Source: Campylobacterales bacterium
GTDB lineage: Bacteria; Campylobacterota; Campylobacteria; Campylobacterales; QNZT01
DNA: 64,000 nt
Direction of reading: 5' to 3'
Assembly: GCA_027023305.1 (NCBI GenBank)
Contig: JALVVR010000017.1
Coordinates: 27,836-91,835, forward strand
A model generated the notes under the pieces. It saw only the letters and a program-made list of their open reading frames with translations, was not told where the DNA came from and made no database searches. Below, piece by piece: positions 8,526 to 29,129 of the stretch (its first letter is position 1; each line of letters starts with the position of its first letter). The position numbers and the translations under genes were made by a program.

Positions 8526-8777
8526 ATGGCTTTAAAAAGAGAAATACAAGGTAAAGTTGTAAAAAAAGCTGGATATAAAACAGCTACAGTTTTGGTTGAG
8601 AGAAAAGTTGTTCATCCTAGATATCACAAAATCGTAAAAAGATTTAAAAAATATCTAATTCATGATGAAAATAATGAAACAAATGTTGGTGATATAGTAA
8701 GTGCTATCGAGTGTAGACCACTATCAAAAACAAAATCTTTTAGATTAAAAGAGATTGTTCAAGCAGGAGTTAAATAA
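8526..8777 (+). CDS. rpsQ: 30S ribosomal protein S17
   Basis: Sequence and operon position. Confidence 0.97.
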
Positions 8778-9145
8778 TGATACAAGGTTTTACTAGACTT
8801 GCAGTTGCTGATAACAGTGGTGCAAAAGAGATTATGTGTATTAAAGTTCTTGGTGGTAGTAAAAGAAGATATGCATCACTTGGTGATGTTATAGTTGCTT
8901 CTGTTAAAAAAGCTACTCCAAATGGAAAAGTTAAAAAAGGTCAAGTTATAAAAGCTGTTGTAGTTAGAACTAAAAAAGAGGTTCAAAGAGAAAATGGATC
9001 ACTTATTAGATTTGATGAAAATGCTGCAGTTATACTTGATGGAAAAAGTGAGCCTATAGGAACAAGGATTTTTGGACCTGTTGGTAGAGAAGTTAGATAT
9101 GCAAACTTCATGAAAATAGTTTCACTAGCACCGGAGGTTTTATAA
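8777..9145 (+). CDS. rplN: 50S ribosomal protein L14
   Basis: [18 protein letters not shown]... Confidence 0.98.
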
Positions 9146-9378
9146 TGGCAACAAAATTTAAAATAAAAAAAGGTGATACTGTAAAAATTATCGCTGGTGA
9201 TGATAAAGGTAAAGTTGCAGAAGTACTAAAAGTTCTTCCTAAAACTTCTCAAGTTATCGTTGCTGGTTGTAAGATAGCTAAAAAAGCAGTTAAACCAACA
9301 GAAGAGAACCAAAATGGTGGTTTTATGGACAAAGAGATGCCAATACATATCTCAAATGTAGCAAAAGTTGAGGGATAA
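9145..9378 (+). CDS. rplX: 50S ribosomal protein L24
   Basis: [18 protein letters not shown]...; operon position. Confidence 0.97.
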
Positions 9379-9381
9379 TTT

Positions 9382-9930
9382 ATGGAAATTAGATTTAAAG
9401 AAAAATATAACAATGAGATAAAATCTACTTTAAAAGAAGAGTTTGACATAAAAAATGTTATGCAAATTCCAGCTTTAGAGAAGATTGTTATAAATGTTGG
9501 TGCTAGCGAAGAGGCAAAAGATAGTAAAGTTTTACAAAGTGTACAAGATACTATCTCTTTAATAGCAGGTCAACATGCACTTGTAACTAAAGCAAAAAAA
9601 TCAATCGCAGGTTTTAAACTAAGAGAAGATTTTCCAGTAGGTGTTAAAGTTACTCTAAGAGGTGATAGAATGTATACTTTCTTTGATAAGTTAGTATCTA
9701 TTACTCTTCCAAGGGTTAAAGACTTTAGAGGTGTTCCTAACAATAACTTTGACGGTAGAGGGAACTATACTTTTGGGCTAGATGAACAACTTGTTTTCCC
9801 AGAGGTAAAATTTGATGATATTATAAAACAACATGGTATGAATATAACTTTTGTAACAACAACTGAAGATGATAAACAATCTCACAGAATGTTAGAGTTA
9901 TTTGGTATGCCATTTGCAAAGAGGTCTTAA
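9382..9930 (+). CDS. rplE: 50S ribosomal protein L5
   Basis: Sequence and operon position. Confidence 0.97.
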
Positions 9931-9933
9931 GTC

Positions 9934-10119
9934 ATGGCAAAAAAATCAATGATAGCAAAACAACAAAGAACGCCTAAGTTTGGTGTAAGAGCTTACACAA
10001 GATGTCAAATCTGTGGAAGACCACACTCAGTATATAAAGATTTTGGAATCTGTAGAATTTGCCTTAGAAAAATGGCAAACGAAGGACAAATTCCTGGTCT
10101 TAAAAAATCAAGTTGGTAG
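9934..10119 (+). CDS. rpsN: 30S ribosomal protein S14, type Z (zinc-binding, 61 aa)
   Basis: CQICGRP...CRICLR double CxxC; operon position. Confidence 0.97.
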
Positions 10120-10128
10120 GGAGAAATT

Positions 10129-10524
10129 ATGGTAAATGATTTAGTATCAGATGCACTAACTAGAATCAGAAATGCATCTATGAGAAAATTGGAAGTAACT
10201 ACACTTCTTCACTCAAAACTTGTAGAAGCAACAGTTAAGATTTTTCAAGAAAAAGGTTATGTTGAAAGTTTTAGCATAGTTGAAGATGGAAATAAAAAGT
10301 TTATAAAAGTAGTCTTAAAGTATAACGACAATGGAACTTCTGTAATTAGTGAACTTAAAAAAATATCAAAACCAGGTAGAAGGGTTTATAAACCTGCTGA
10401 TGAGATAAAAAGATTTAAAAATGGTTATGGAACTATCGTAGTAAGTACTTCAAAAGGTGTACTAAGTAATGACGCTGCATTCAAAGAGGGAATTGGTGGC
10501 GAAGTTATCTGTAGTATTTGGTAA
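10129..10524 (+). CDS. rpsH: 30S ribosomal protein S8
   Basis: DALTRIRNA...; operon position. Confidence 0.97.
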
Positions 10525-19827: not shown

Positions 19828-21105
19828 TTGAAGATAGAGATACAAAATAAACCATATAAATATATAACAGACAACTCACAAGAAGTTGATGAAAATACAG
19901 CCTTTTTTCTTTGCAAACAAAATAAAAAGTACAAACAAGATAACTTTAAGCACATAGTTACAGTTGAAGAGTTAAAAGAGATATACAATTTAAAAGATAT
20001 AAAAATTGTAGGTATAACTGGAACAAATGGCAAAACAACAACAGCAGCTGCCTTATATTCGTTTTTACTTGATTTAGGATATAAAGTAGGCTTTCAAGGT
20101 ACAAGAGGACTTTTTATAAACGAAGAAAAAATAGAAGGTAAAACCCTTACAACCCCACTTATCTTCAACACTCTAAATCATATAAAAGAGGCAAAAGACA
20201 AAGGTTGTGAGTTCTTTATCATGGAAGTAAGCTCTCATGCAATTGAGCAACAAAGAATAGAGGGATTGGACTTTGAGTTAAAAATATATACAAATCTAAC
20301 TCAAGACCACCTAGACTATCACAAAACTTTTGAAGAGTACAAAAGAGTAAAAGAAAGTTTTTTCCTAGATGAAAGTAAAAAACTGATAAACAAAGATGCC
20401 AAAAAAATAAACTTCAACATAAAAAATGCCTTTACCTATGCCCTAGATGCTCCAGCAACCTATAATGTAACAGCATACACTCTAAAAAATGGTATCTCAG
20501 CAGCCATAAGACACTTTGGAGAACTAGAAAGCCTATACTCTAGCTTGCAAGGAACTTTCAATGTTTACAATCTCCTAGCAGCAGTAGCATCTGCACAAAT
20601 CTTAACAAATAAACCACTAAAAGAGATTTGCGAAGTAGTAGAAAACTTCGCAGGAGTAAGTGGCAGGATGGAAGTAGTAAGCGAACAACCACTAGTGATA
20701 GTTGATTTTGCTCACACTCCAGACGGTATGGACAAAGTCCTAGACTCTCTCAAAGATAAGCCTATAAGCTTAGTCTTTGGAGCAGGAGGAGATAGAGACA
20801 AATCAAAAAGACCACTCATGGGAAGAGTAGCAAACAGATATGCAAAAAAAATCTACCTAACAAGCGATAACCCAAGAAGCGAAAACCCACAAACTATCCT
20901 AGATGAGATAGCTCTAGGAATAGACAAAAAAGAGAAACTAAAGCTAGTAGAATCAGATAGAAAAAAAGCTATAGAAGAAGCTTTTAATCAACTTGAAAGT
21001 GATGAAATATTAGTTATCCTTGGAAAAGGAGATGAAGATTATCAAGAGATAGATGGAGTTAAGTATCCTTTTGATGATAGGGAAGTTGTGAGAGATTTAT
21101 TATAA
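19828..21105 (+). CDS. murE: UDP-N-acetylmuramoyl-L-alanyl-D-glutamate--2,6-diaminopimelate ligase
   Basis: ITDNSQEV, GITGTNGKTTT, DNPRSE and others. TTG start. Confidence 0.92.
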   Translation: MKIEIQNKPYKYITDNSQEVDENTAFFLCKQNKKYKQDNFKHIVTVEELKEIYNLKDIKIVGITGTNGKTTTAAALYSFLLDLGYKVGFQGTRGLFINEEKIEGKTLTTPLIFNTLNHIKEAKDKGCEFFIMEVSSHAIEQQRIEGLDFELKIYTNLTQDHLDYHKTFEEYKRVKESFFLDESKKLINKDAKKINFNIKNAFTYALDAPATYNVTAYTLKNGISAAIRHFGELESLYSSLQGTFNVYNLLAAVASAQILTNKPLKEICEVVENFAGVSGRMEVVSEQPLVIVDFAHTPDGMDKVLDSLKDKPISLVFGAGGDRDKSKRPLMGRVANRYAKKIYLTSDNPRSENPQTILDEIALGIDKKEKLKLVESDRKKAIEEAFNQLESDEILVILGKGDEDYQEIDGVKYPFDDREVVRDLL

Positions 21106-21119
21106 GCTAATACAATTAC

Positions 21120-21148
21120 TTGAAAATAGATAATATTTTAGATATAAT
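21120..21148 (+). promoter_or_regulatory. Near-consensus promoter of the HTH/STAND/orphan/HipA operon
   Basis: TTGAAA (21120-21125), 17 nt, TATAAT (21143-21148), 28 nt upstream of ATG 21176. TAGATA is repeated in the spacer. Confidence 0.55.
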
Positions 21149-21175
21149 ACCTTACAAATACTAAAAAGGTCTAAT

Positions 21176-21448
21176 ATGTTATCTTTTTTACCAAAAACCC
21201 CAAGTGATATACAACAAAATTTAAAAACTAACTTCAAACAAAAAAGAAAAAAACTTGGCTTCACTCAAAATGACCTTGCCGATCGCTCAGGAGTAAGTTT
21301 AGGCTCACTAAAAAGATTTGAAAACAAAGGACAGATTTCTTTAGAATCACTTCTAAAGTTAGCTTTGGTTTTGGAGTGTTTGGAGGAGTTTAGAGCTTTG
21401 TGTAAGGTGATGGAAGTTATGCCTGATAGTATAGAGGATTTGTTGTGA
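21176..21448 (+). CDS. XRE-family HTH protein, HipB-like
   Basis: 90 aa. LGFTQNDLADRSGVSLGSLKRFENKGQISLESLLKL. Confidence 0.85.
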   Translation: MLSFLPKTPSDIQQNLKTNFKQKRKKLGFTQNDLADRSGVSLGSLKRFENKGQISLESLLKLALVLECLEEFRALCKVMEVMPDSIEDLL

Positions 21449-24400
21449 GCTTAAATAATGCCCATGAAGGTTATGATTATCAAGATTTATTAACAAGCTA
21501 TTTTATATTAAAAGAGATACTGTTAGGAAATAGAAATAGTATTTTTTCTATTGATAAAAAACACACAATAGGAAATGACGTCCCTGATAGATTTGATGAT
21601 TTAGTTATTACTAATGGTTCAAATATTCAACGCAAACAAATTAAATATAGTAATGATACTGTTGCTAGAAAACTTATAAAGAATGACTTCTCGAATGATA
21701 GTAAAGGTTTAGCACTTTATGAAATTTATAAATCATGGAATGAGTTAAACACTACTAATAGTGAATTTAGGCTTTGTTTAGCATGGGATGAGCCAACGGC
21801 TGACAATATTAAAAGAGTTTTAGTTCCCTTTGCTGTAGAATCTTCATTTCCAAACTTTGCTACAAAGTTATATAGAATTAACCTTGACAATTTATGGGAA
21901 GAAAATCCTGAAAAGTTTAATCGTTGGGATAGTCTAAAAAAATTTGTTCAAAAGAATGATATTAATAGAGATGATTTTAAACTTTTTTGTGATTCCTTAG
22001 TTATTGAGTTAGAACTTCCCAAAGCAAGTTTAAAATTTAATGCACCAAATGATTTAGAAAATATTTTGGTTCAACAAGCTGAAAAATTAGGCATTGGTCA
22101 ATACCCAAATGATGATATTTATATTAGTGATTTTTTAGAACGATTAGCAAAAAAAGTTGGAGAATATAGAACAAGGTCAGCAGAAGTAACAGGAGAAGAT
22201 ATATTAAAAGATTTAAGAATTAAAACAGATTTTGGAAAAATTGAACAAAAGTTTGAGATAGACCAAACCAAAAATATAAAATCAAATAATAAATATACTT
22301 TTTTTCAAACTAAAGTTATAGAAAATAAAAAGACTTTACTTATTGGAGAGCCTGGAAGTGGTAAGTCTTGGTTTTTGACAAACTTTATTGAGTATTTAGA
22401 GAAAAATTCTAAGAAAGTTATACGACATTATTGTTTTACAGATACAGAAGATGAACTTATAGAAAAAAGAGTAAGTTCAGATGTCTTTTTTGGAAACTTA
22501 ATAAGTGATATTCTAAGAAAATTCCCTAAATTAAAAAAAGAAAACTTAGTAGCAAATTTAGATGAATTAAATGTGTTACTTTCAAATGTAGAGGATGAGC
22601 TAATCATCATTATTGATGGCTTAGACCATATTGAAAGAGTATTGAAAAGCTCATCTACTTTATCAGAAAGTAAAACAATGATTATTGAGTTTATATCTCA
22701 AATAGTTTTACCTAATAATATATATATTATTTTGGGTTCTCAACCTGTGGATGAAATTCGTGTTTTAATTGATGATTTTGACTATGTAGACCATAGGTTG
22801 ACTAAATGGAATATGGAAGATGTGATAGAACTGATGAATAAATACTCTTTAGAAGATAAATTATTAGAAGATAAATTATTGTCAGAGTATCTTTTTGAAA
22901 AAAGTGAAGGGAATCCTCTTTATTTGACTTATGTTATTAAAACTTTAAAGAATCAACCAATAACGATAGAGTTAATTAATGAATTACCTCAGTATGATTT
23001 TAATCTTAAAAAGTATTATGAATATTTAACTTCTCAAATGGATAATAATTTAACATCAGAGATATTGTCTTGTTTGAATTTTTCTATAAATATAAATGAA
23101 TTAGAGAATATAAACCCACAAAGCCACCATATAGAAAATGATTTAAAAACTTTATCTCCTATATTAAATGAGAACTTTTTAAGAGGTGGGATTAAGCTTT
23201 ATCATGATAGTTTTAGAAGATATAATATAGAAAAACTAGAAGAGAACGATGGACTGCAAAATATTTATAAACTTATTACTAAATGGTTAAAAAAACAAGG
23301 TTTTTATAAAAGTGATAAAGCATATAGATATTTATTGGGTTATTATATAAAAATAGATAAATTTAAAAAAGTTAAAAAATATGCGACTAATGATTTTTTA
23401 ACAAAAAGTTTATATCATGGATATTCTGAAAGTATAATCAATGTGAATTATAATAATTTTTTATATGTAGCTAAAGAAACACAAGATTGGTCTCTCTTTA
23501 TTTATCTAAGTGAACTTAATAGAACTATGCAATCTACTTTAAGTGATTCATATAATGAATTTGAAGAGAAGTTTGAACTATATTTTGAAGCTATTGGTTT
23601 AATATATGGATTTGAAAAAGCTAATAAAATTTTATTTTTTGATGGTAAGCAGAACTTTAGTGATGAATTAATTGTAAAAGCTTTTTACATCTCTCAAAAA
23701 AATGGTTACATACCTAATTGGAGAAAAATAGAGTATTATTTTAAGAATGAAATTTCATTAGAAAATTTTAGATATTTTATTGCGTATTTGATTGCCCTCA
23801 ATAAACTTGATGATAATGTAAGAAAGAATAGAGTTTATTTATCTACAAATTTAGATTATTTGAAAATACTTGTAGAAGAAGTATATTATTTAGAAGGATT
23901 TGAAAAAATATTATCTCTTTATGAACAAAACAAATGTAGTCGTAAAGATATTATTGTCAATAAAATAAATCAAATTTTAGATAATACAAATTGTACACAA
24001 AGAATTTTAGTTGAAAATCAAATGCAACATTTATGTTTACCTCTTTTAAATTTAGATTTTGTTGATGAATATATTGAAGAAGGAGTTTTAGATAATTTTT
24101 ACTATTTGGTAAAACAATATAGTAGCTATAACTTATATGCATTAGAAGAGTTTGAAAAAACTATACTATCAAATAATTTCTTTTATAATTGGTTAAAGTT
24201 TCTTATTAGGAATTTCATTATTGAAGAAAAAATCAATCAAAATAAATTTGCAAATTATAAATCTGTAGAAAAAAAAATTATTGAAAATTTTAAATTTTTA
24301 TCTAGTGATATTGACCCATATAAAGGGAAACCAAGAGTTATAGATTTTACATATAAAAATGGACATATAATAGATAGAAGTATAGAGCAAGGACTAAAAT

Positions 24401-26199
24401 ATATACAATCTAAAAAAAGTTGGTCTAAAGTTGTTGATTATTTAAATTTTATTCCTTATAACACTATAGCTATTATAGAAGAAAAATATATTAATAATAA
24501 AAATATTAAATTTGTTATTGATTCATATAAATATTTTGATGATTCAGAAGATGAATACTATAGTTCATATTTAGAGTATAAGTTAAAAAAAGCTATTTAT
24601 TATTCAAAAGTAGAAAAGAAGAAAAAAGCACGAAAAAATTTGTTACAATCAATGAGATTAATTACAAGTTATACTTTTAGAAAAGATACAACTTTAGATG
24701 AAATTCAAAGCCCTATAGAGTCATTAAAAGTACTTGATAAACAATTTGCTTTAAAGTATATAAAAAAACTATTACCACTAAATATTGCTGTTCAAAATCA
24801 TAGTGAAGATGGTAAAGGTATTAGATGGTTATATATTGATTGGTTTAAATTTTTTTTAGAAGTTAATCAAAAGAAAGCTTCAATTTTTCTAATAAATAAA
24901 TTATTAGAAGATGAATATTTTTGGAAATATGAATTTATGTTTTCTGCTTATTTAAAAAATTCAGATGATGTGAATCCTATAATTTTAAATTATTTATATA
25001 GACTAATGCCAACTTTTATTAGGGATGATGCTATCGCTTCAAATTACATCTCTTCATTTTCAGACAACATATATAAAATAATTGATAAAGATGAAAAAAT
25101 AGCGAGACAATCATTTGTAAATATTTTAGAAAGAGATTTAAATAACCATCGTGATAAACCATCAAATAAGAGTATAAAAAAACTTCAAGTATTAAAAAAT
25201 ATTTTAAATGTATCTATACCTATCCAAAAATCAAAAAAAGAAAAAGCTACTCCTTCTACTTTTGGAGAAAAAAACTTAGAAGAAAAATTAACAATACAAT
25301 ACGGTATTACCGAATCATTAAAAGAAAAAAATCTTGAACAGATAAATGAGTATTTTGATAAACAAGATAGAAATTTGATGAATAAAGATTTAATTTTTTT
25401 ACTATACTATTTTAATGAAAAAAATGATGATGAATTGATTGAAAGTATTTTAGAATCATTGATTACTAGCAAACTTATAGGAGATAAAAATTATTATGAA
25501 AAGTTAAGAGGATTAGTTAATCATATAAGATGTTCAGTTGGACTAAAAACATATCTTTTAGTGAAAATATTTGTATTTTCTCAAGGTGGTTGGTTTGAAA
25601 ATTTTCTAAATAAAGATGCCTTAAAAGACGCAGTCAAGTTAGACGGAAAACTAGCATTATTCTATTTATCTCAAGAACTTTTTGAGAAATTTAAAACTAT
25701 ATACTATTACTCTCAAAGTACATCAAACTTGATTATAGCTTTTGAGTATGCAGGATTAAAGAAAAAAGATATTTTATCTATGTATAAGAGAGGATTTGAG
25801 TCCATAGAGTATAGATTACCAGGTGATTATGATTTTCATTGGAATAGTATAGAAGATAAAAAAATGAAAGATATGTCTGATGATGAAATAGCAATTGTCA
25901 TAATCTTGGTCAAATCTAAAAATATGGATGCTTTAGTTCAAAAAGAAGTTTTATCAGCAATCAATTATTTATTCAACTACAATGAAACTCTATTAATTAA
26001 ACCCTTGCAATGGTTTTTTGAAAACATTAATCACTTTCCTCATATATCTATAGCGAGTATATTAGAGTTATTTTTAATTTATGTAGATGAGAAGCAAGTT
26101 TTTTTTCAAACACTAAAAAATGATATCTCAAAGGTTAGAAGATTAAGTAATTTATATATCTCAAACTGTTTGAAGAAATTAATTGGGAGTATTAAATAA
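21445..26199 (+). CDS. 1584-aa protein: N-terminal DUF4297/Cap4-like PD-(D/E)xK nuclease signature, a STAND (NACHT/NB-ARC-like) P-loop NTPase, and a long helical C-terminal region; Avs/bNACHT-like architecture
   Basis: GTG start overlaps the HTH gene stop (GTGA), with an AGAGGA SD. Motifs: GYDYQD (aa 9-14), FDDLVI...QIKYS (aa 50-68), GEPGSGKS (aa 301-308), LIIIIDGLDH (aa 386-395) and SEGNPLYL. Confidence 0.75.
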   Translation: MSLNNAHEGYDYQDLLTSYFILKEILLGNRNSIFSIDKKHTIGNDVPDRFDDLVITNGSNIQRKQIKYSNDTVARKLIKNDFSNDSKGLALYEIYKSWNELNTTNSEFRLCLAWDEPTADNIKRVLVPFAVESSFPNFATKLYRINLDNLWEENPEKFNRWDSLKKFVQKNDINRDDFKLFCDSLVIELELPKASLKFNAPNDLENILVQQAEKLGIGQYPNDDIYISDFLERLAKKVGEYRTRSAEVTGEDILKDLRIKTDFGKIEQKFEIDQTKNIKSNNKYTFFQTKVIENKKTLLIGEPGSGKSWFLTNFIEYLEKNSKKVIRHYCFTDTEDELIEKRVSSDVFFGNLISDILRKFPKLKKENLVANLDELNVLLSNVEDELIIIIDGLDHIERVLKSSSTLSESKTMIIEFISQIVLPNNIYIILGSQPVDEIRVLIDDFDYVDHRLTKWNMEDVIELMNKYSLEDKLLEDKLLSEYLFEKSEGNPLYLTYVIKTLKNQPITIELINELPQYDFNLKKYYEYLTSQMDNNLTSEILSCLNFSININELENINPQSHHIENDLKTLSPILNENFLRGGIKLYHDSFRRYNIEKLEENDGLQNIYKLITKWLKKQGFYKSDKAYRYLLGYYIKIDKFKKVKKYATNDFLTKSLYHGYSESIINVNYNNFLYVAKETQDWSLFIYLSELNRTMQSTLSDSYNEFEEKFELYFEAIGLIYGFEKANKILFFDGKQNFSDELIVKAFYISQKNGYIPNWRKIEYYFKNEISLENFRYFIAYLIALNKLDDNVRKNRVYLSTNLDYLKILVEEVYYLEGFEKILSLYEQNKCSRKDIIVNKINQILDNTNCTQRILVENQMQHLCLPLLNLDFVDEYIEEGVLDNFYYLVKQYSSYNLYALEEFEKTILSNNFFYNWLKFLIRNFIIEEKINQNKFANYKSVEKKIIENFKFLSSDIDPYKGKPRVIDFTYKNGHIIDRSIEQGLKYIQSKKSWSKVVDYLNFIPYNTIAIIEEKYINNKNIKFVIDSYKYFDDSEDEYYSSYLEYKLKKAIYYSKVEKKKKARKNLLQSMRLITSYTFRKDTTLDEIQSPIESLKVLDKQFALKYIKKLLPLNIAVQNHSEDGKGIRWLYIDWFKFFLEVNQKKASIFLINKLLEDEYFWKYEFMFSAYLKNSDDVNPIILNYLYRLMPTFIRDDAIASNYISSFSDNIYKIIDKDEKIARQSFVNILERDLNNHRDKPSNKSIKKLQVLKNILNVSIPIQKSKKEKATPSTFGEKNLEEKLTIQYGITESLKEKNLEQINEYFDKQDRNLMNKDLIFLLYYFNEKNDDELIESILESLITSKLIGDKNYYEKLRGLVNHIRCSVGLKTYLLVKIFVFSQGGWFENFLNKDALKDAVKLDGKLALFYLSQELFEKFKTIYYYSQSTSNLIIAFEYAGLKKKDILSMYKRGFESIEYRLPGDYDFHWNSIEDKKMKDMSDDEIAIVIILVKSKNMDALVQKEVLSAINYLFNYNETLLIKPLQWFFENINHFPHISIASILELFLIYVDEKQVFFQTLKNDISKVRRLSNLYISNCLKKLIGSIK

Positions 26200-27065
26200 T
26201 GTTTGAAAGAGTAAAAGATACAATTTTGAGAAATGATTATATTTCCTATTTAAAACATTTAGGTATTGATACAAGTGAGATTTTTGGTAATATTCAAAAT
26301 AGACTAGATGATAAAAATTTATTTTTTATTTTTGAAAATAGAAGTCATAGTATGCTTTCACCTAATGTAATTCTTGAAAATATAGTTTTTGAAGAAGTGA
26401 ATAAATATTTGTATTCTAATGATTATGATTCAAATATTTTTAAAAGAGATATAGAGATAGATATAAAAACCTTGATAGCCTCTCAAAACTCTATAATAGA
26501 AAGACCTAAAATAAAAAAACCATCTGAATTAGAAGAGGGATTTAAATCTGAGTTAGAAAATGAAAATGGATTTATCCGTATTGCAAGATTTGAAAATGAG
26601 ATGATAGAAAAAGATAATGGATGGGAAAGACAAGGACAAACTATAGTATTTGAAGGTTTAAGTATTTTTAAAAAAAATAGTCCTTTTTTTGAAGGATTAC
26701 CATCATCATTAATTTGGGACAATGCTTTATATTATCCTAATAATCCATTTATTATTTGGTTTGGAAAGAAATTTAATAGTATTGAAGCAAATAATATTTT
26801 ATGGATAAATAGTCTATTGCAAAGTGATTTGGGACTGATATTAGATGATTTTAATCATGGACTTCAAGCTTTAAATGAAGTAAATGAAGTTGTATTGAAA
26901 TTTAGACAATGGAGAAGTGATTTAATTGATAATGGTGCTTCATTAGATTCTAATATTGCTAAGTTAGAGGGATGTGATTTAATATTGAGGGAAGATTATT
27001 ATGAAAGACTAAAAGCGATGATTCCTGATATAAAATTTTTTTGTAAGAAATTGGACTTAAAATGA
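26199..27065 (+). CDS. 288-aa protein of unknown function, translationally coupled on both sides
   Basis: TAATG overlap with the upstream gene and ATGA overlap with hipA. GGGAG SD. No motif recognised. Confidence 0.7.
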   Translation: MFERVKDTILRNDYISYLKHLGIDTSEIFGNIQNRLDDKNLFFIFENRSHSMLSPNVILENIVFEEVNKYLYSNDYDSNIFKRDIEIDIKTLIASQNSIIERPKIKKPSELEEGFKSELENENGFIRIARFENEMIEKDNGWERQGQTIVFEGLSIFKKNSPFFEGLPSSLIWDNALYYPNNPFIIWFGKKFNSIEANNILWINSLLQSDLGLILDDFNHGLQALNEVNEVVLKFRQWRSDLIDNGASLDSNIAKLEGCDLILREDYYERLKAMIPDIKFFCKKLDLK

Positions 27066-28285
27066 TATCTAACCAAACCATCTACCTAAACACCAACAAA
27101 ACCCAAAAACTAGGAACCATAGCCCAAAAAAACAATAAAATATACTTCGAATACGATAAAGATTTCTTAAAAACAAAACTAGAAATCTCTCCATACAAAC
27201 TACCACTAAAATCTGGTTTATTTCGTTGTGATGACAACACTTTTGATGGGATTTGGGGTGTTTTTGCTGACTCTTTGCCTGATGGTTGGGGAAGATTGCT
27301 TATGGATAGACATCTTTTAAAACTTGGGATTAATCCTCACTCACTTTCTCCTTTGGATAGATTAGCTTATGTTGGTAGTGATGCTATGGGGGCTTTGAGT
27401 TATGAACCATCACTAGAGATAAAATCAGAGTTACAAGATATTATACTAGATGATTTATCAAAGAGTTCTAAAGAGATTTTAGAGGGAAGTAGTGAGCTTT
27501 TAGTTGAAGAGTTACTTAGTCTAAATGGCTCTTCATCAGGAGCAAGACCAAAGGTTTTGGTGCAAATAAGTGAGGATTTAACCAAGATAGTACACGGCAA
27601 GTCTAAGTTAAAAGAGGGATTTAGTTACTGGATAGTGAAGTTCGCTTCTAGTGTTGATTCTTTTGAAGTAGGAGCGATTGAGTATGCTTACTCACTTATG
27701 GCAAAGGATGCTAGGCTAATTATGCCAGATTCTACTTTGATAGAGGGAAAATATGGAAGATATTTTGCGATAAAAAGATTTGATAGAGTTGGGAGTAAAA
27801 GAGTTCATATGCACTCAGTTGCTGGACTTACTCATAGTGATTTTAGGTATCCAACGATTGATTATGATGATTTACTTACTTTAACATTTCATCTTACAAA
27901 AGATTTTAAAGAGGTAGAAAAAATGTTTAGACAAGCAGTTTTTAATCTTTTTACAAACAACAGAGATGACCATGCTAAAAACTTTTCATATCTTTTGAAT
28001 GAAAGTGGAGAGTGGAAACTATCTCCTGCTTATGATTTGACATACTCTAGTGGAGTTGGTGGAGAGCATAGCACTATGTATTTGGGAGAAGGAAAAAATC
28101 CAACTGTTTTACATCTTGAAAAGTTAGCTAAAAAACATCTTATAAAAAATGCTCCACAAATAATAGAAGAGGTAAAAGACTCTGTTTCAAAATGGAAGTA
28201 TTTTGCAAAAGAGGCAGGAGTTAGTAAAAATAGTATAAATCAACTTTCAAAGCTATTTAAGACTCATTTTCTCCCAAATTCCTAA
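27062..28285 (+). CDS. hipA: HipA-family Ser/Thr kinase toxin
   Basis: 407 aa. DSLPDGWGRLL, SSGARPKVL, NRDDHAKNFS and LSPAYDL. Confidence 0.9.
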   Translation: MISNQTIYLNTNKTQKLGTIAQKNNKIYFEYDKDFLKTKLEISPYKLPLKSGLFRCDDNTFDGIWGVFADSLPDGWGRLLMDRHLLKLGINPHSLSPLDRLAYVGSDAMGALSYEPSLEIKSELQDIILDDLSKSSKEILEGSSELLVEELLSLNGSSSGARPKVLVQISEDLTKIVHGKSKLKEGFSYWIVKFASSVDSFEVGAIEYAYSLMAKDARLIMPDSTLIEGKYGRYFAIKRFDRVGSKRVHMHSVAGLTHSDFRYPTIDYDDLLTLTFHLTKDFKEVEKMFRQAVFNLFTNNRDDHAKNFSYLLNESGEWKLSPAYDLTYSSGVGGEHSTMYLGEGKNPTVLHLEKLAKKHLIKNAPQIIEEVKDSVSKWKYFAKEAGVSKNSINQLSKLFKTHFLPNS

Positions 28286-28372
28286 AATTTAATAAATTAT
28301 TAATCTTTCCTTGTTACAATACCGAGATTTTAATAAATAGCCTAATTATAGGTTAATAATAAGGGGAAAATT

Positions 28373-28747
28373 ATGGGGATACCAAAACCAGCATTTTATA
28401 TATTTAAGTGTGAGCAGAGTTCACCTCCGGGGATGCCAAAACCTAGTTGTGTGAGAGAGGGAACACAAGATTTGTTTCAACATTTAGGAATGAAGCTTAT
28501 GGAAAAAGGACTTATAGCTACAGTTGTTCCAGTTAGAACAGCTTGTCTAAACAGATGTCAGCAAGGTCCAGTTATGTTAGTTGAGCCTGGACATTACATG
28601 TATGTAGAGCTTACTAAAGAAAAAATAGATAGAATAATAGACGAACATATTATTGGTGAAAAACCAGTTGCTGAGTATTTGATAAGTGATGAGTTTTGGG
28701 ATGAAGCTATTTCGCCAATGGAAGCTATGAAAATGGCTGGAAGATAA
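28373..28747 (+). CDS. Thioredoxin-like [2Fe-2S] ferredoxin domain protein
   Basis: FKCEQ..PSC...TACLNRCQQGP pattern. Confidence 0.75.
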   Translation: MGIPKPAFYIFKCEQSSPPGMPKPSCVREGTQDLFQHLGMKLMEKGLIATVVPVRTACLNRCQQGPVMLVEPGHYMYVELTKEKIDRIIDEHIIGEKPVAEYLISDEFWDEAISPMEAMKMAGR

Positions 28748-28763
28748 AACTTAAGGGAAGAGT

Positions 28764-29129
28764 ATGACAATCACGATGCTTTATAGCAAACTTCATCGTG
28801 CAACTGTTACAGATGCAAATCTAAACTATGTTGGTTCTATCACTATCGATAGAGATTTGCTTGATGCTGCAGGGCTTATAGTGGGTCAAAAAGTAGAAAT
28901 AGTAAACATCAACAACGGTGAGAGATTTGCAACCTATGTTATAGAGGGTGAGAGAGGCAAAAAAGATATGTGTCTAAATGGTGCAGCTGCTAGAAAAGCT
29001 GAGATTGGTGATAAAATCATAGTTATAGCTTATGCATCTATGAGCCAAGAAGAGGCAAAAACTTACAAACCAAAAGTAGTACTTTTAGGTGATGATAATA
29101 GTATAGATGAGATAAAAGATTATGTTTAA
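28764..29129 (+). CDS. panD: Aspartate 1-decarboxylase
   Basis: [25 protein letters not shown]. Confidence 0.95.

Follow-up and report, generated by a model that had tools for sequence, protein, structure and literature searches.

An Avs-like STAND gene pair as probable cargo between hipB and hipA in a Campylobacterales operon

Why should hipB and hipA, the antitoxin gene and the toxin gene of one operon, lie 5.6 kb apart, chained through stop/start overlaps to two other genes between them? The question is raised by a 64,000-nucleotide (nt) stretch from a Campylobacterales bacterium (assembly GCA_027023305.1, contig JALVVR010000017.1, positions 27,836 to 91,835), hereafter the window, whose list of open reading frames (ORFs) has four frames in a row on the + strand, encoding a HipB-like helix-turn-helix (HTH) protein, a 1584-amino-acid (aa) STAND protein, a 288-aa protein and a HipA kinase (Table 1). 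An earlier note on this DNA had described the chain, with its GTGA, TAATG and ATGA overlaps and with the two long frames separating hipB from an intact hipA, and the ORF coordinates and overlaps all agree with that description. The note had offered two readings, a kinase-assisted abortive-infection system or a toxin–antitoxin (TA) module that captured a defence cassette. We favour, at a probability of about 0.7, a reading in which an autonomous, split Avs-like system sits as cargo in a hipBA defence slot: the STAND gene and its partner recur apart from hipBA, and the same HipB/HipA pair brackets at least 12 other, unrelated defence-type cargos.

The STAND pair with and without hipBA

Homologs of the STAND protein number in the hundreds, have a constant length of ~1580 aa and occur in Arcobacter, Sulfurovum, Sulfuricurvum, Vibrio, Photobacterium, Pseudoalteromonas, Photorhabdus, Pectobacterium, Pasteurella and others. 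Our survey comprised 78 genome loci and 79 metagenome loci, recovered by an alignment-based scan (scanning the genome contigs with the STAND protein as sole query returned no loci), and a locus was counted as a family member when its match covered the N-terminal nuclease and NTPase regions, which was so for ~115 loci, ~85 of them full length. The 288-aa partner is adjacent or fused to the STAND protein in all family loci where the contig permits. It lies directly downstream, over TAATG or a short overlap, in ~45 loci, the split two-gene form being that of Campylobacterota and Gammaproteobacteria, and it forms the C-terminal end of the STAND protein itself, in fusions of ~1880 aa, in Bacteroidota, Spirochaetota and others (L016-L023, L112, L114 and others; L numbers are our labels for surveyed loci).

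Linkage of this pair to HTH and HipA genes was found in four lineages only. The four genes in this order, overlaps included, are seen again in three more independent metagenome loci (L084; L085 with L154; L086, identical to L082), the last of which has an additional Fic/RhuM gene after the HTH gene. Pairwise identities among the four-gene loci are 54-69% for the HTH protein, 62-74% for the STAND protein, 69-74% for the partner and 59-69% for HipA, and their chromosomal neighbours differ (murE; argG with ORF6N; glyS with a ribbon-helix-helix gene; IS110). The neighbourhood survey that the earlier note had proposed thus finds a recurrent linkage, and a one-off insertion is rejected. Comparably close STAND pairs lack HTH and HipA altogether (L079, 81% identical; L080/L081, 77%; L083, 73%; L087, 62%) and instead neighbour a PD-T4-6-like kinase (L079), SIR2-HerA (L080), a HerA-like gene, or a PIN gene and a fused HinP1I restriction–modification (R-M) gene (L087). 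All more distant family members likewise lack both genes, so the linkage is real and not obligatory. Altogether the pair occurs without hipBA in ~80 loci of Campylobacterota, Gammaproteobacteria, Bacteroidota, Firmicutes and others, which argues that it does not depend on HipA; judged by gene content, it is probably an independent system. In the metagenome-assembled genome (MAG) of Arcobacter SZUA-1382, a STAND pair stands by itself (L001/L081), and the hipB-hipA slot, on a different contig, is occupied by a type II CBASS (L178).

Two side observations concern the neighbours of these hipBA-free pairs. In L079 (13779-15588), a Hanks-type Ser/Thr kinase gene (PADLOC PD-T4-6/mad6-like) begins 92 nt after the STAND pair and is overlapped by a gene for a 308-aa protein without matches. 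In L087, only 3 nt separate the end of a PIN toxin gene from the STAND start codon, and a single 594-aa ORF (8664-10448) that overlaps the partner stop fuses a C-5 cytosine methyltransferase to an R.HinP1I endonuclease domain.

The hipB-hipA junction and its cargos

Slot surveys anchored on HipA and on the HTH protein, with cargo annotated by PADLOC and Pfam, placed the HTH orthologs (50-78% identity) directly beside HipA in ~45 loci of the subfamily, and this canonical, abutting order holds for every Bacteroidota or other non-Campylobacterota locus in which HipA was found. Nested loci belong to vent and marine Campylobacterota (Sulfurovum, Sulfurimonas, Nitratifractor, Arcobacter and related MAGs). 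Their cargos are all co-directional with the hipBA frame and mostly joined by 4-nt overlaps. Because the same slot recurrently holds other defence systems, hipBA is better read as a docking and regulatory frame than as a STAND-specific partner.

Frame and cargo also differ in composition. In every nested locus the GC content of hipB and hipA is like that of the host flanks (34-49%), and that of the cargo is 23-30%; the two are therefore of different histories. A neighbour-joining tree of HipA intermixes cargo-bearing and canonical loci in one Campylobacterota clade, in which the STAND-bearing loci are not mutual closest relatives. The insertion point can be read from L206, which carries Gabija, and canonical L203: the two are syntenic on both sides of a 3.7-kb insert at the hipB-stop/hipA-start ATGA, whose boundary has a possible 4-5-nt AATGA repeat only. 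Of 15 loci, 11 have a first cargo gene whose start codon overlaps the hipB stop, whereas towards hipA the spacing varies; the hipB/STAND junction of the window equals that of L086 minus Fic, joined over ATGAG microhomology. Across the cargo junctions, no boundary motif is conserved beyond the [A/G]TGA stop/start overlap. The possibility that the HTH gene is itself part of the cargo was rejected on GC content and on the L206/L203 synteny.

These results separate the two earlier proposals. Kinase-assisted abortive infection finds no support, as the pair lacks HipA and HTH in most of its loci, including the 81% and 77% relatives, and the frame holds unrelated systems. Capture of a defence cassette by a TA module stands, and is moreover recurrent and position-specific in this HipBA subfamily; the support is limited to capture and does not extend to stabilisation of the cassette.

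The four genes also form an island in the window. In L259 and L260, where murE directly precedes the ferredoxin-like gene with 6-63 nt between them, blastn homology to the window ends at 21095/21086 and begins again at 28251/28360, so window positions ~21102-28250 are an insertion. The last ~11 hipA codons (28251-28285, FKTHFLPNS and stop) are homologous to the intergenic DNA between murE and the ferredoxin-like gene in relatives (L259), which puts the right end of the island inside the hipA reading frame. Neither a direct repeat of at least 8 nt flanking the island nor an integrase next to the unit was found. The closest relative found, L258 (7560-16560; MurE 92% identical, 86.5% DNA identity upstream), was rejected as an alternative island, since the genome is rearranged at this same junction: in place of the ferredoxin-like gene and panD, its murE precedes rpmI-rplT, a gene with an EAL domain and the S10 operon of ribosomal proteins.

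The encoded proteins and the upstream element

The STAND protein is predicted to begin with a nuclease. Its N-terminal 290 aa gave a confident AlphaFold2 (AF2) model (pLDDT 81.6, pTM 0.81; model alignments were built from database proteins), which Foldseek matched, at probability 1.0 and a TM-score of ~0.5, to Cap4 (7yia/7yib, E 4e-6), to LmuA of Lamassu (9ux7_C/9nxx_B) and to the N-terminal nuclease of Avs3 (8dgc_A, E 1.6e-4). The family alignment has invariant H7, G9, Y10, Q13, D14, D37, K39, D48, D51, D52, Q65 and K67, and among these D37 / D51-D52 / Q65-x-K67 form a nuclease-type pattern. The GYDYQ, FDDLVI and QIKYS motifs, from which a Cap4-type PD-(D/E)xK domain had been proposed, are (near-)invariant, and the modelled fold supports the proposal; the domain has no Pfam match and no sequence-level match in the PDB. 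The STAND assignment is likewise upheld: Walker A, Walker B and the GNPLYL (GxP) motif are invariant across 22 homologs, and Pfam NPHP3_N matches aa 294-430 above its gathering cut-off (E 4e-8, 34 bits), with NACHT (E 3e-5, 24.3 bits against a cut-off of 26.7) and AAA_22 just below theirs. NCBIfam Avs1b matches aa 286-598 with E 1e-8 and 32.8 bits against a cut-off of 1500, and PADLOC returns mad8 only, at the P-loop (E 7e-5). The C-terminal ~960 aa (N 8%, K 12%, Y 8%) are conserved in length and in many columns across the family and have no Pfam, PADLOC or PDB sequence match. When profiles of the N-terminal domain, of the partner and of the whole STAND protein were run against PDB sequences, nothing meaningful was returned, and fold comparison alone was informative. 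Judged by its domain order, the protein would work like an Avs. It lies outside the curated Avs1-5 models and may belong to one of the ~90 Avs families catalogued in 2026 (PMC13581612).

The 288-aa ORF had been taken for an orphan, which its constant place beside the STAND gene and its fusion in other phyla contradict. Its AF2 model (pLDDT 82) combines an N-terminal helical part with a beta-rich domain, and its only significant PDB matches in Foldseek are Avs3 chains (8dgc_A/B, E 2.8e-4, probability 1.0) at a low TM-score of 0.32; Pfam, PADLOC and NCBIfam gave no match. The protein is thus probably a detached C-terminal module of the STAND receptor and its obligate partner. Because the N-terminal and partner models match Avs3 folds and sequence profiles find no solved relative, the pair reads as a divergent, split Avs3-like receptor.

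At the two ends of the operon, the HTH protein matches Pfam HTH_3 (E 3e-11), weakly and below cut-off the NCBIfam HipB and couple_hipB models, weakly the PADLOC capH model (E 9e-5) and, by profile, the solved HipB chains 2wiu_B and 5k98_B; together with orthologs that abut HipA, this agrees with its earlier description as HipB-like. HipA is indeed intact, as had been claimed, with full-length HipA_C (E 3e-46, 158 bits), Couple_hipA (E 6e-17, 62 bits, aa 14-114) and the motifs GSSSGARPK, NRDDHAKN and SPAYD, the latter two, catalytic, falling on the corresponding segments of E. coli HipA (3tpd) in the alignment; PADLOC gives weak PDC-M03A matches only. It likely keeps a toxin role of its own. 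One side observation concerns the antitoxin: the HipB C-terminal tail differs with the cargo in all nested loci, and in L206 (10271-10315) the HipB ORF is 13 cargo-encoded codons longer than in orthologous L203 (104 aa versus 91 aa). The C-terminal tail of E. coli HipB is a reported Lon degron, so the cargo could change antitoxin stability through this variable tail.

The near-consensus promoter of the earlier note, TTGAAA-17-TATAAT, is present and is the top promoter-like match in 20900-28800 (11/12). Promoter-like matches in the region equal those in shuffles (54 versus 51.6), and the consensus match alone is therefore weak evidence of a promoter. What sets the site apart is its conservation. 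The 22-nt element TAGATAATATTTTAGATATAAT that ends in its -10 box occurs once in the window, with 0 copies expected in shuffles, and 54 of the 82 related HTH loci have it ~49 nt upstream of the HTH start codon. Among the Campylobacterota members of the subfamily, nearly every locus, whether canonical or cargo-bearing, has it at -47 to -51 relative to the HTH ATG, and in most relatives it forms a palindrome (TAGCTAA-TATT-TTAGCTA). Such conservation speaks for a real promoter and for a probable HipB operator within it, which differs in sequence from the E. coli hipBA operator. Joint regulation of cargo and hipA from the hipB promoter, through co-transcription, is plausible from this arrangement.

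By analogy with Avs3 and Avs7, the cargo module would act as a bicistronic Avs3-like STAND system, consisting of a nuclease, a NACHT-type NTPase, a presumed sensor and a translationally coupled partner, in which sensor and partner bind a phage protein, ATP-dependent oligomerisation follows, and the assembled nuclease domains cleave DNA and abort the infection. The frame module reads as a hipBA type II TA operon of a Campylobacterota subfamily. Since the cargo lies precisely where the hipB stop and the hipA start overlap, the single hipB promoter could serve both it and hipA; HipB or HipB-HipA may repress this promoter at the palindrome overlapping the -10 box.

Table 1. Features of the window around the nested operon, and cargos of the hipB-hipA slot in other loci
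Feature	Position or locus	Strand	Details
murE	19828-21105		upstream housekeeping flank; downstream flank: ferredoxin-like gene, panD and others
Whole inserted unit (island)	21102-28250	+	blastn versus L259, L260, where murE adjoins the ferredoxin-like gene
Sigma-70-type promoter	21120-21148	+	TTGAAA 21120-21125, 17-nt spacer, TATAAT 21143-21148
Conserved 22-nt element TAGMTAATATWTTAGMTATAAT	21127-21148	+	ends in -10 box; putative HipB operator
hipB-like XRE/HTH_3 gene	21176-21448	+	90 aa, GC 33.7%
GTGA overlap	21445-21448		hipB/STAND
STAND gene	21445-26199	+	GTG start, 1584 aa, GC 23.8%
Cap4-like PD-(D/E)xK nuclease domain	21445-22224	+	~aa 1-260; AF2 model and Foldseek (predicted)
STAND/NACHT-type NTPase module	22300-23238	+	~aa 286-598; Pfam and motifs
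Walker A	22345-22368		GEPGSGKS, aa 301-308
Walker B	22600-22629		IIIIDGLDH, aa 386-395
GxP motif	22909-22926		GNPLYL, aa 489-494
C-terminal region, presumed sensor	23305-26199	+	~960 aa; presumed from Avs architecture
TAATG overlap	26197-26201		STAND/partner
Partner gene	26199-27065	+	288 aa, GC 24.7%
ATGA overlap	27062-27065		partner/hipA
hipA Ser/Thr kinase toxin gene	27062-28285	+	407 aa, GC 33.7%
Slot cargo: type II CBASS	L178
Slot cargo: DRT4	L177
Slot cargo: Gabija	L206, L163
Slot cargo: PtuA/PtuB-like (Septu-like)	L191
Slot cargo: PDC-M62	L195
Slot cargo: PDC-M45	L192
Slot cargo: PDC-S02	L220
Slot cargo: Tmn	L196
Slot cargo: HD-CE/HATPase protein	L234
Slot cargo: Fic/PDC-S23	L176, L184		with 1043-1045-aa proteins
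Slot cargo: 1267-aa unknown protein	L194

Competing explanations, known systems and significance

One rival makes HipA and HipB working parts of a four-component STAND machine, in which HipA might phosphorylate the STAND protein, the partner or a host target, or the STAND protein might free HipA from HipB. In its favour, the four genes are chained by overlaps and have diverged together across four loci whose chromosomal sites differ. A different, Hanks-type kinase, moreover, follows the nearest relative of the STAND protein (L079), and HipA-family kinases have a validated defence role, as HipA+DUF3037 (DS-6 / PDC-M66) only (PMC13092281, PMC12548924). Against such a machine speak the STAND pair without HipA or HTH in ~80 loci of several phyla, the one frame around at least 12 unrelated systems, the separate histories to which GC content points, and the scattering of STAND-bearing loci in the HipA tree, and we hold it to be highly improbable. 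The neutral explanation, that the junction is a landing pad tolerated since insertion lowers toxin translation, with nesting functionless and hipA decaying, has more in its favour: HipA is a mere remnant in L176, L177 and L191, neither an att site nor a recombinase was found, the hipA-side junction spacing varies, and defence genes tightly abut unrelated genes in these compact genomes, as PIN and R-M genes do in L087. A neutral pad nevertheless sits poorly with 12 or more cargos at the identical junction in one subfamily of which ~45 other loci are canonical, with the overlap of the first cargo start and the hipB stop in 11 of 15 loci, and with the conservation of the hipB promoter element in cargo loci. 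In most of the cargo loci HipA is also full length with its catalytic motifs retained, and loci with a decayed hipA still keep hipB ahead of the cargo. We therefore consider neutrality unlikely. Scarcely credible, in our judgement, is that the HTH protein is a portable regulator of promoter-HTH-cargo units and no antitoxin of HipA here, HipA being merely the next gene. HTH-Fic units are repeated (L183, L186, L187, L201, L208), two tandem promoter-HTH units occur in each of L192 and L183, the HTH gene survives where HipA decayed, and the capH match would fit such a regulator; yet the GC content of the HTH gene tracks the host and not the cargo, orthologous HTH genes abut hipA via ATGA in ~45 loci including distant phyla, and the HTH gene lies within the syntenic, non-inserted DNA of L206/L203.

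Several points weigh against our preferred reading of an autonomous Avs-like system nested in a hipBA slot. The three loci with HipA remnants indicate that the frame is not always kept, and searches of the cargo boundaries found no att-like motif, recombinase or significant target duplication. No intrinsic terminator was detected, after hipA included, and internal promoters are possible, promoter-like matches being as common in shuffled AT-rich DNA. None of the curated Avs, PADLOC or NCBIfam models recognises the STAND protein beyond its P-loop region, and the partner's low-scoring match to Avs3 is not localised within that protein. The HipA tree carries no support values, and most surveyed loci come from MAGs or metagenome contigs. 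The kinase beside the closest STAND relative may be a defence-island coincidence or a hint of a kinase link.

A broader interpretation, which we regard as possible but doubtful when taken as a whole, is that a vent and marine Campylobacterota lineage has exapted hipBA, turning it into an all-purpose, portable frame that immune genes can occupy. The expression of any inserted defence system would then be set by HipB through its operator, and HipA would serve as a fail-safe abortive-infection toxin when a phage halts host transcription or blocks the cargo. The bacteria are naturally competent, and homologous recombination in the conserved hipB and hipA arms would let them exchange cassettes. Were this exaptation true, the slot would be a discovery tool and its unannotated occupants new defence systems.

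We found no described system with this four-gene combination, in agreement with the earlier note. PADLOC-DB v2 has no system-level match for any of the four window proteins, and the searched literature, which left most subscription journals outside its coverage, contains no hipB-cargo-hipA, nested TA-defence or comparable Campylobacterota architecture. The nearest likeness of the cargo is to Avs3 (SeAvs3, PDB 8DGC; 2028 aa) and to Cap4-nuclease Avs proteins such as Avs7, which share the order of nuclease, STAND NTPase and very long C-terminal region; the fused STAND-partner forms (~1880 aa) are of similar length. Unlike these, the window protein is split into two coupled genes and has no sequence-level similarity to Avs3 or other solved STAND proteins. 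The frame shares with canonical hipBA of E. coli K-12 an HTH gene first, a HipA with Couple_hipA last and a single upstream promoter with a palindrome (PMC8262856), differing in that 5.6 kb of unrelated genes separate two genes that are otherwise adjacent or overlapping. Ten Hip gene organisations have been surveyed, none with such cargo (Gerdes et al. 2021, PMC8262856). In the tripartite hipBST system, the kinase HipT lacks the N-terminal subdomain, and a separate HipS supplies it; membership is ruled out here by the Couple_hipA domain that the window HipA retains and by intervening genes that are not HipS-like. HipA+DUF3037 (DS-6 / PDC-M66 / HipAD), found inserted in a retron locus (PMC12548924), shares the HipA-family kinase but has DUF3037 as antitoxin instead of an HTH HipB, and is a two-gene system without nested cargo, unlike the window.

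Two further comparisons concern genomic context and control. Defence islands and hotspots (P2/P4 satellites, SXT hotspot 5, core hotspots) have conserved flanks and variable cargo, and the hipBA slot resembles them in these flanks, in a highly variable cargo whose composition is foreign, and in being present in some close relatives and absent from others. Here, in contrast, the flanks are two genes of one TA operon, the cargo stands at a stop/start overlap and would share its promoter, and no integrase, att/attC site or mobile-element backbone of the kind that marks mobile-element hotspots and integron-like platforms was found. HTH-regulated defence operons are known as well, with CapH/CapP for CBASS and the BrxR/CapW WYL regulators, and they share with the window a small HTH repressor gene directly upstream of the defence genes, where it would presumably act as a regulator. 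Here the HTH protein is paired with a HipA kinase toxin, encoded last in the operon, and not with a protease or WYL ligand domain.

The locus links TA biology with that of antiviral STAND proteins and defence islands, through a TA operon whose antitoxin-toxin junction has taken in immune systems repeatedly, behind a single conserved promoter element, and it corrects the view of kinase and STAND protein as one dedicated machine. Some orthologous loci carry cargo and others do not, and a dozen cargos share a single frame, which amounts to a natural experiment on whether TA autoregulation controls or backs up immunity. A probable role also emerges for a widespread, unannotated family of ~1580 + 288 aa proteins (Vibrio, Pseudoalteromonas, Photorhabdus, Pectobacterium, Arcobacter and others), and the slot offers a guilt-by-association filter for new defence genes.

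Candidates for such genes are the unannotated occupants, which may be new defence genes by association. They include L176:1700-4831 (1043 aa), L184:8347-11484 (1045 aa, with weak TPR matches) and L194:1813-5616 (1267 aa), to which L234:403-3823 (an HD-CE+HATPase_c_3 protein of 960 aa, next to one of 190 aa) and L192:6178-6924 (248 aa) can be added; PADLOC had no match for any of these proteins save a weak RT_UG24 match for the 960-aa protein. L194 and L234 come with MAG labels of a Micavibrio sp. and a Methanocaldococcaceae archaeon, respectively, and their HTH proteins are 70-73% identical to the window HipB; these vent-metagenome contigs are probably mis-binned, or else represent recent transfers. 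Tandem promoter-HTH units occupy L192:3940-8182 and L183:6531-9534, the former in the order HTH1, Fic fragment, second operator-like element, N-terminally damaged HTH2, PDC-M45 and HipA. Such tandem units suggest stacking or shuffling of cassettes via recombination between hipB copies. Finally, an Rfam search of the window found no RNA families, and the island is enclosed by housekeeping genes, murE on one side and the ferredoxin-like gene with panD on the other.

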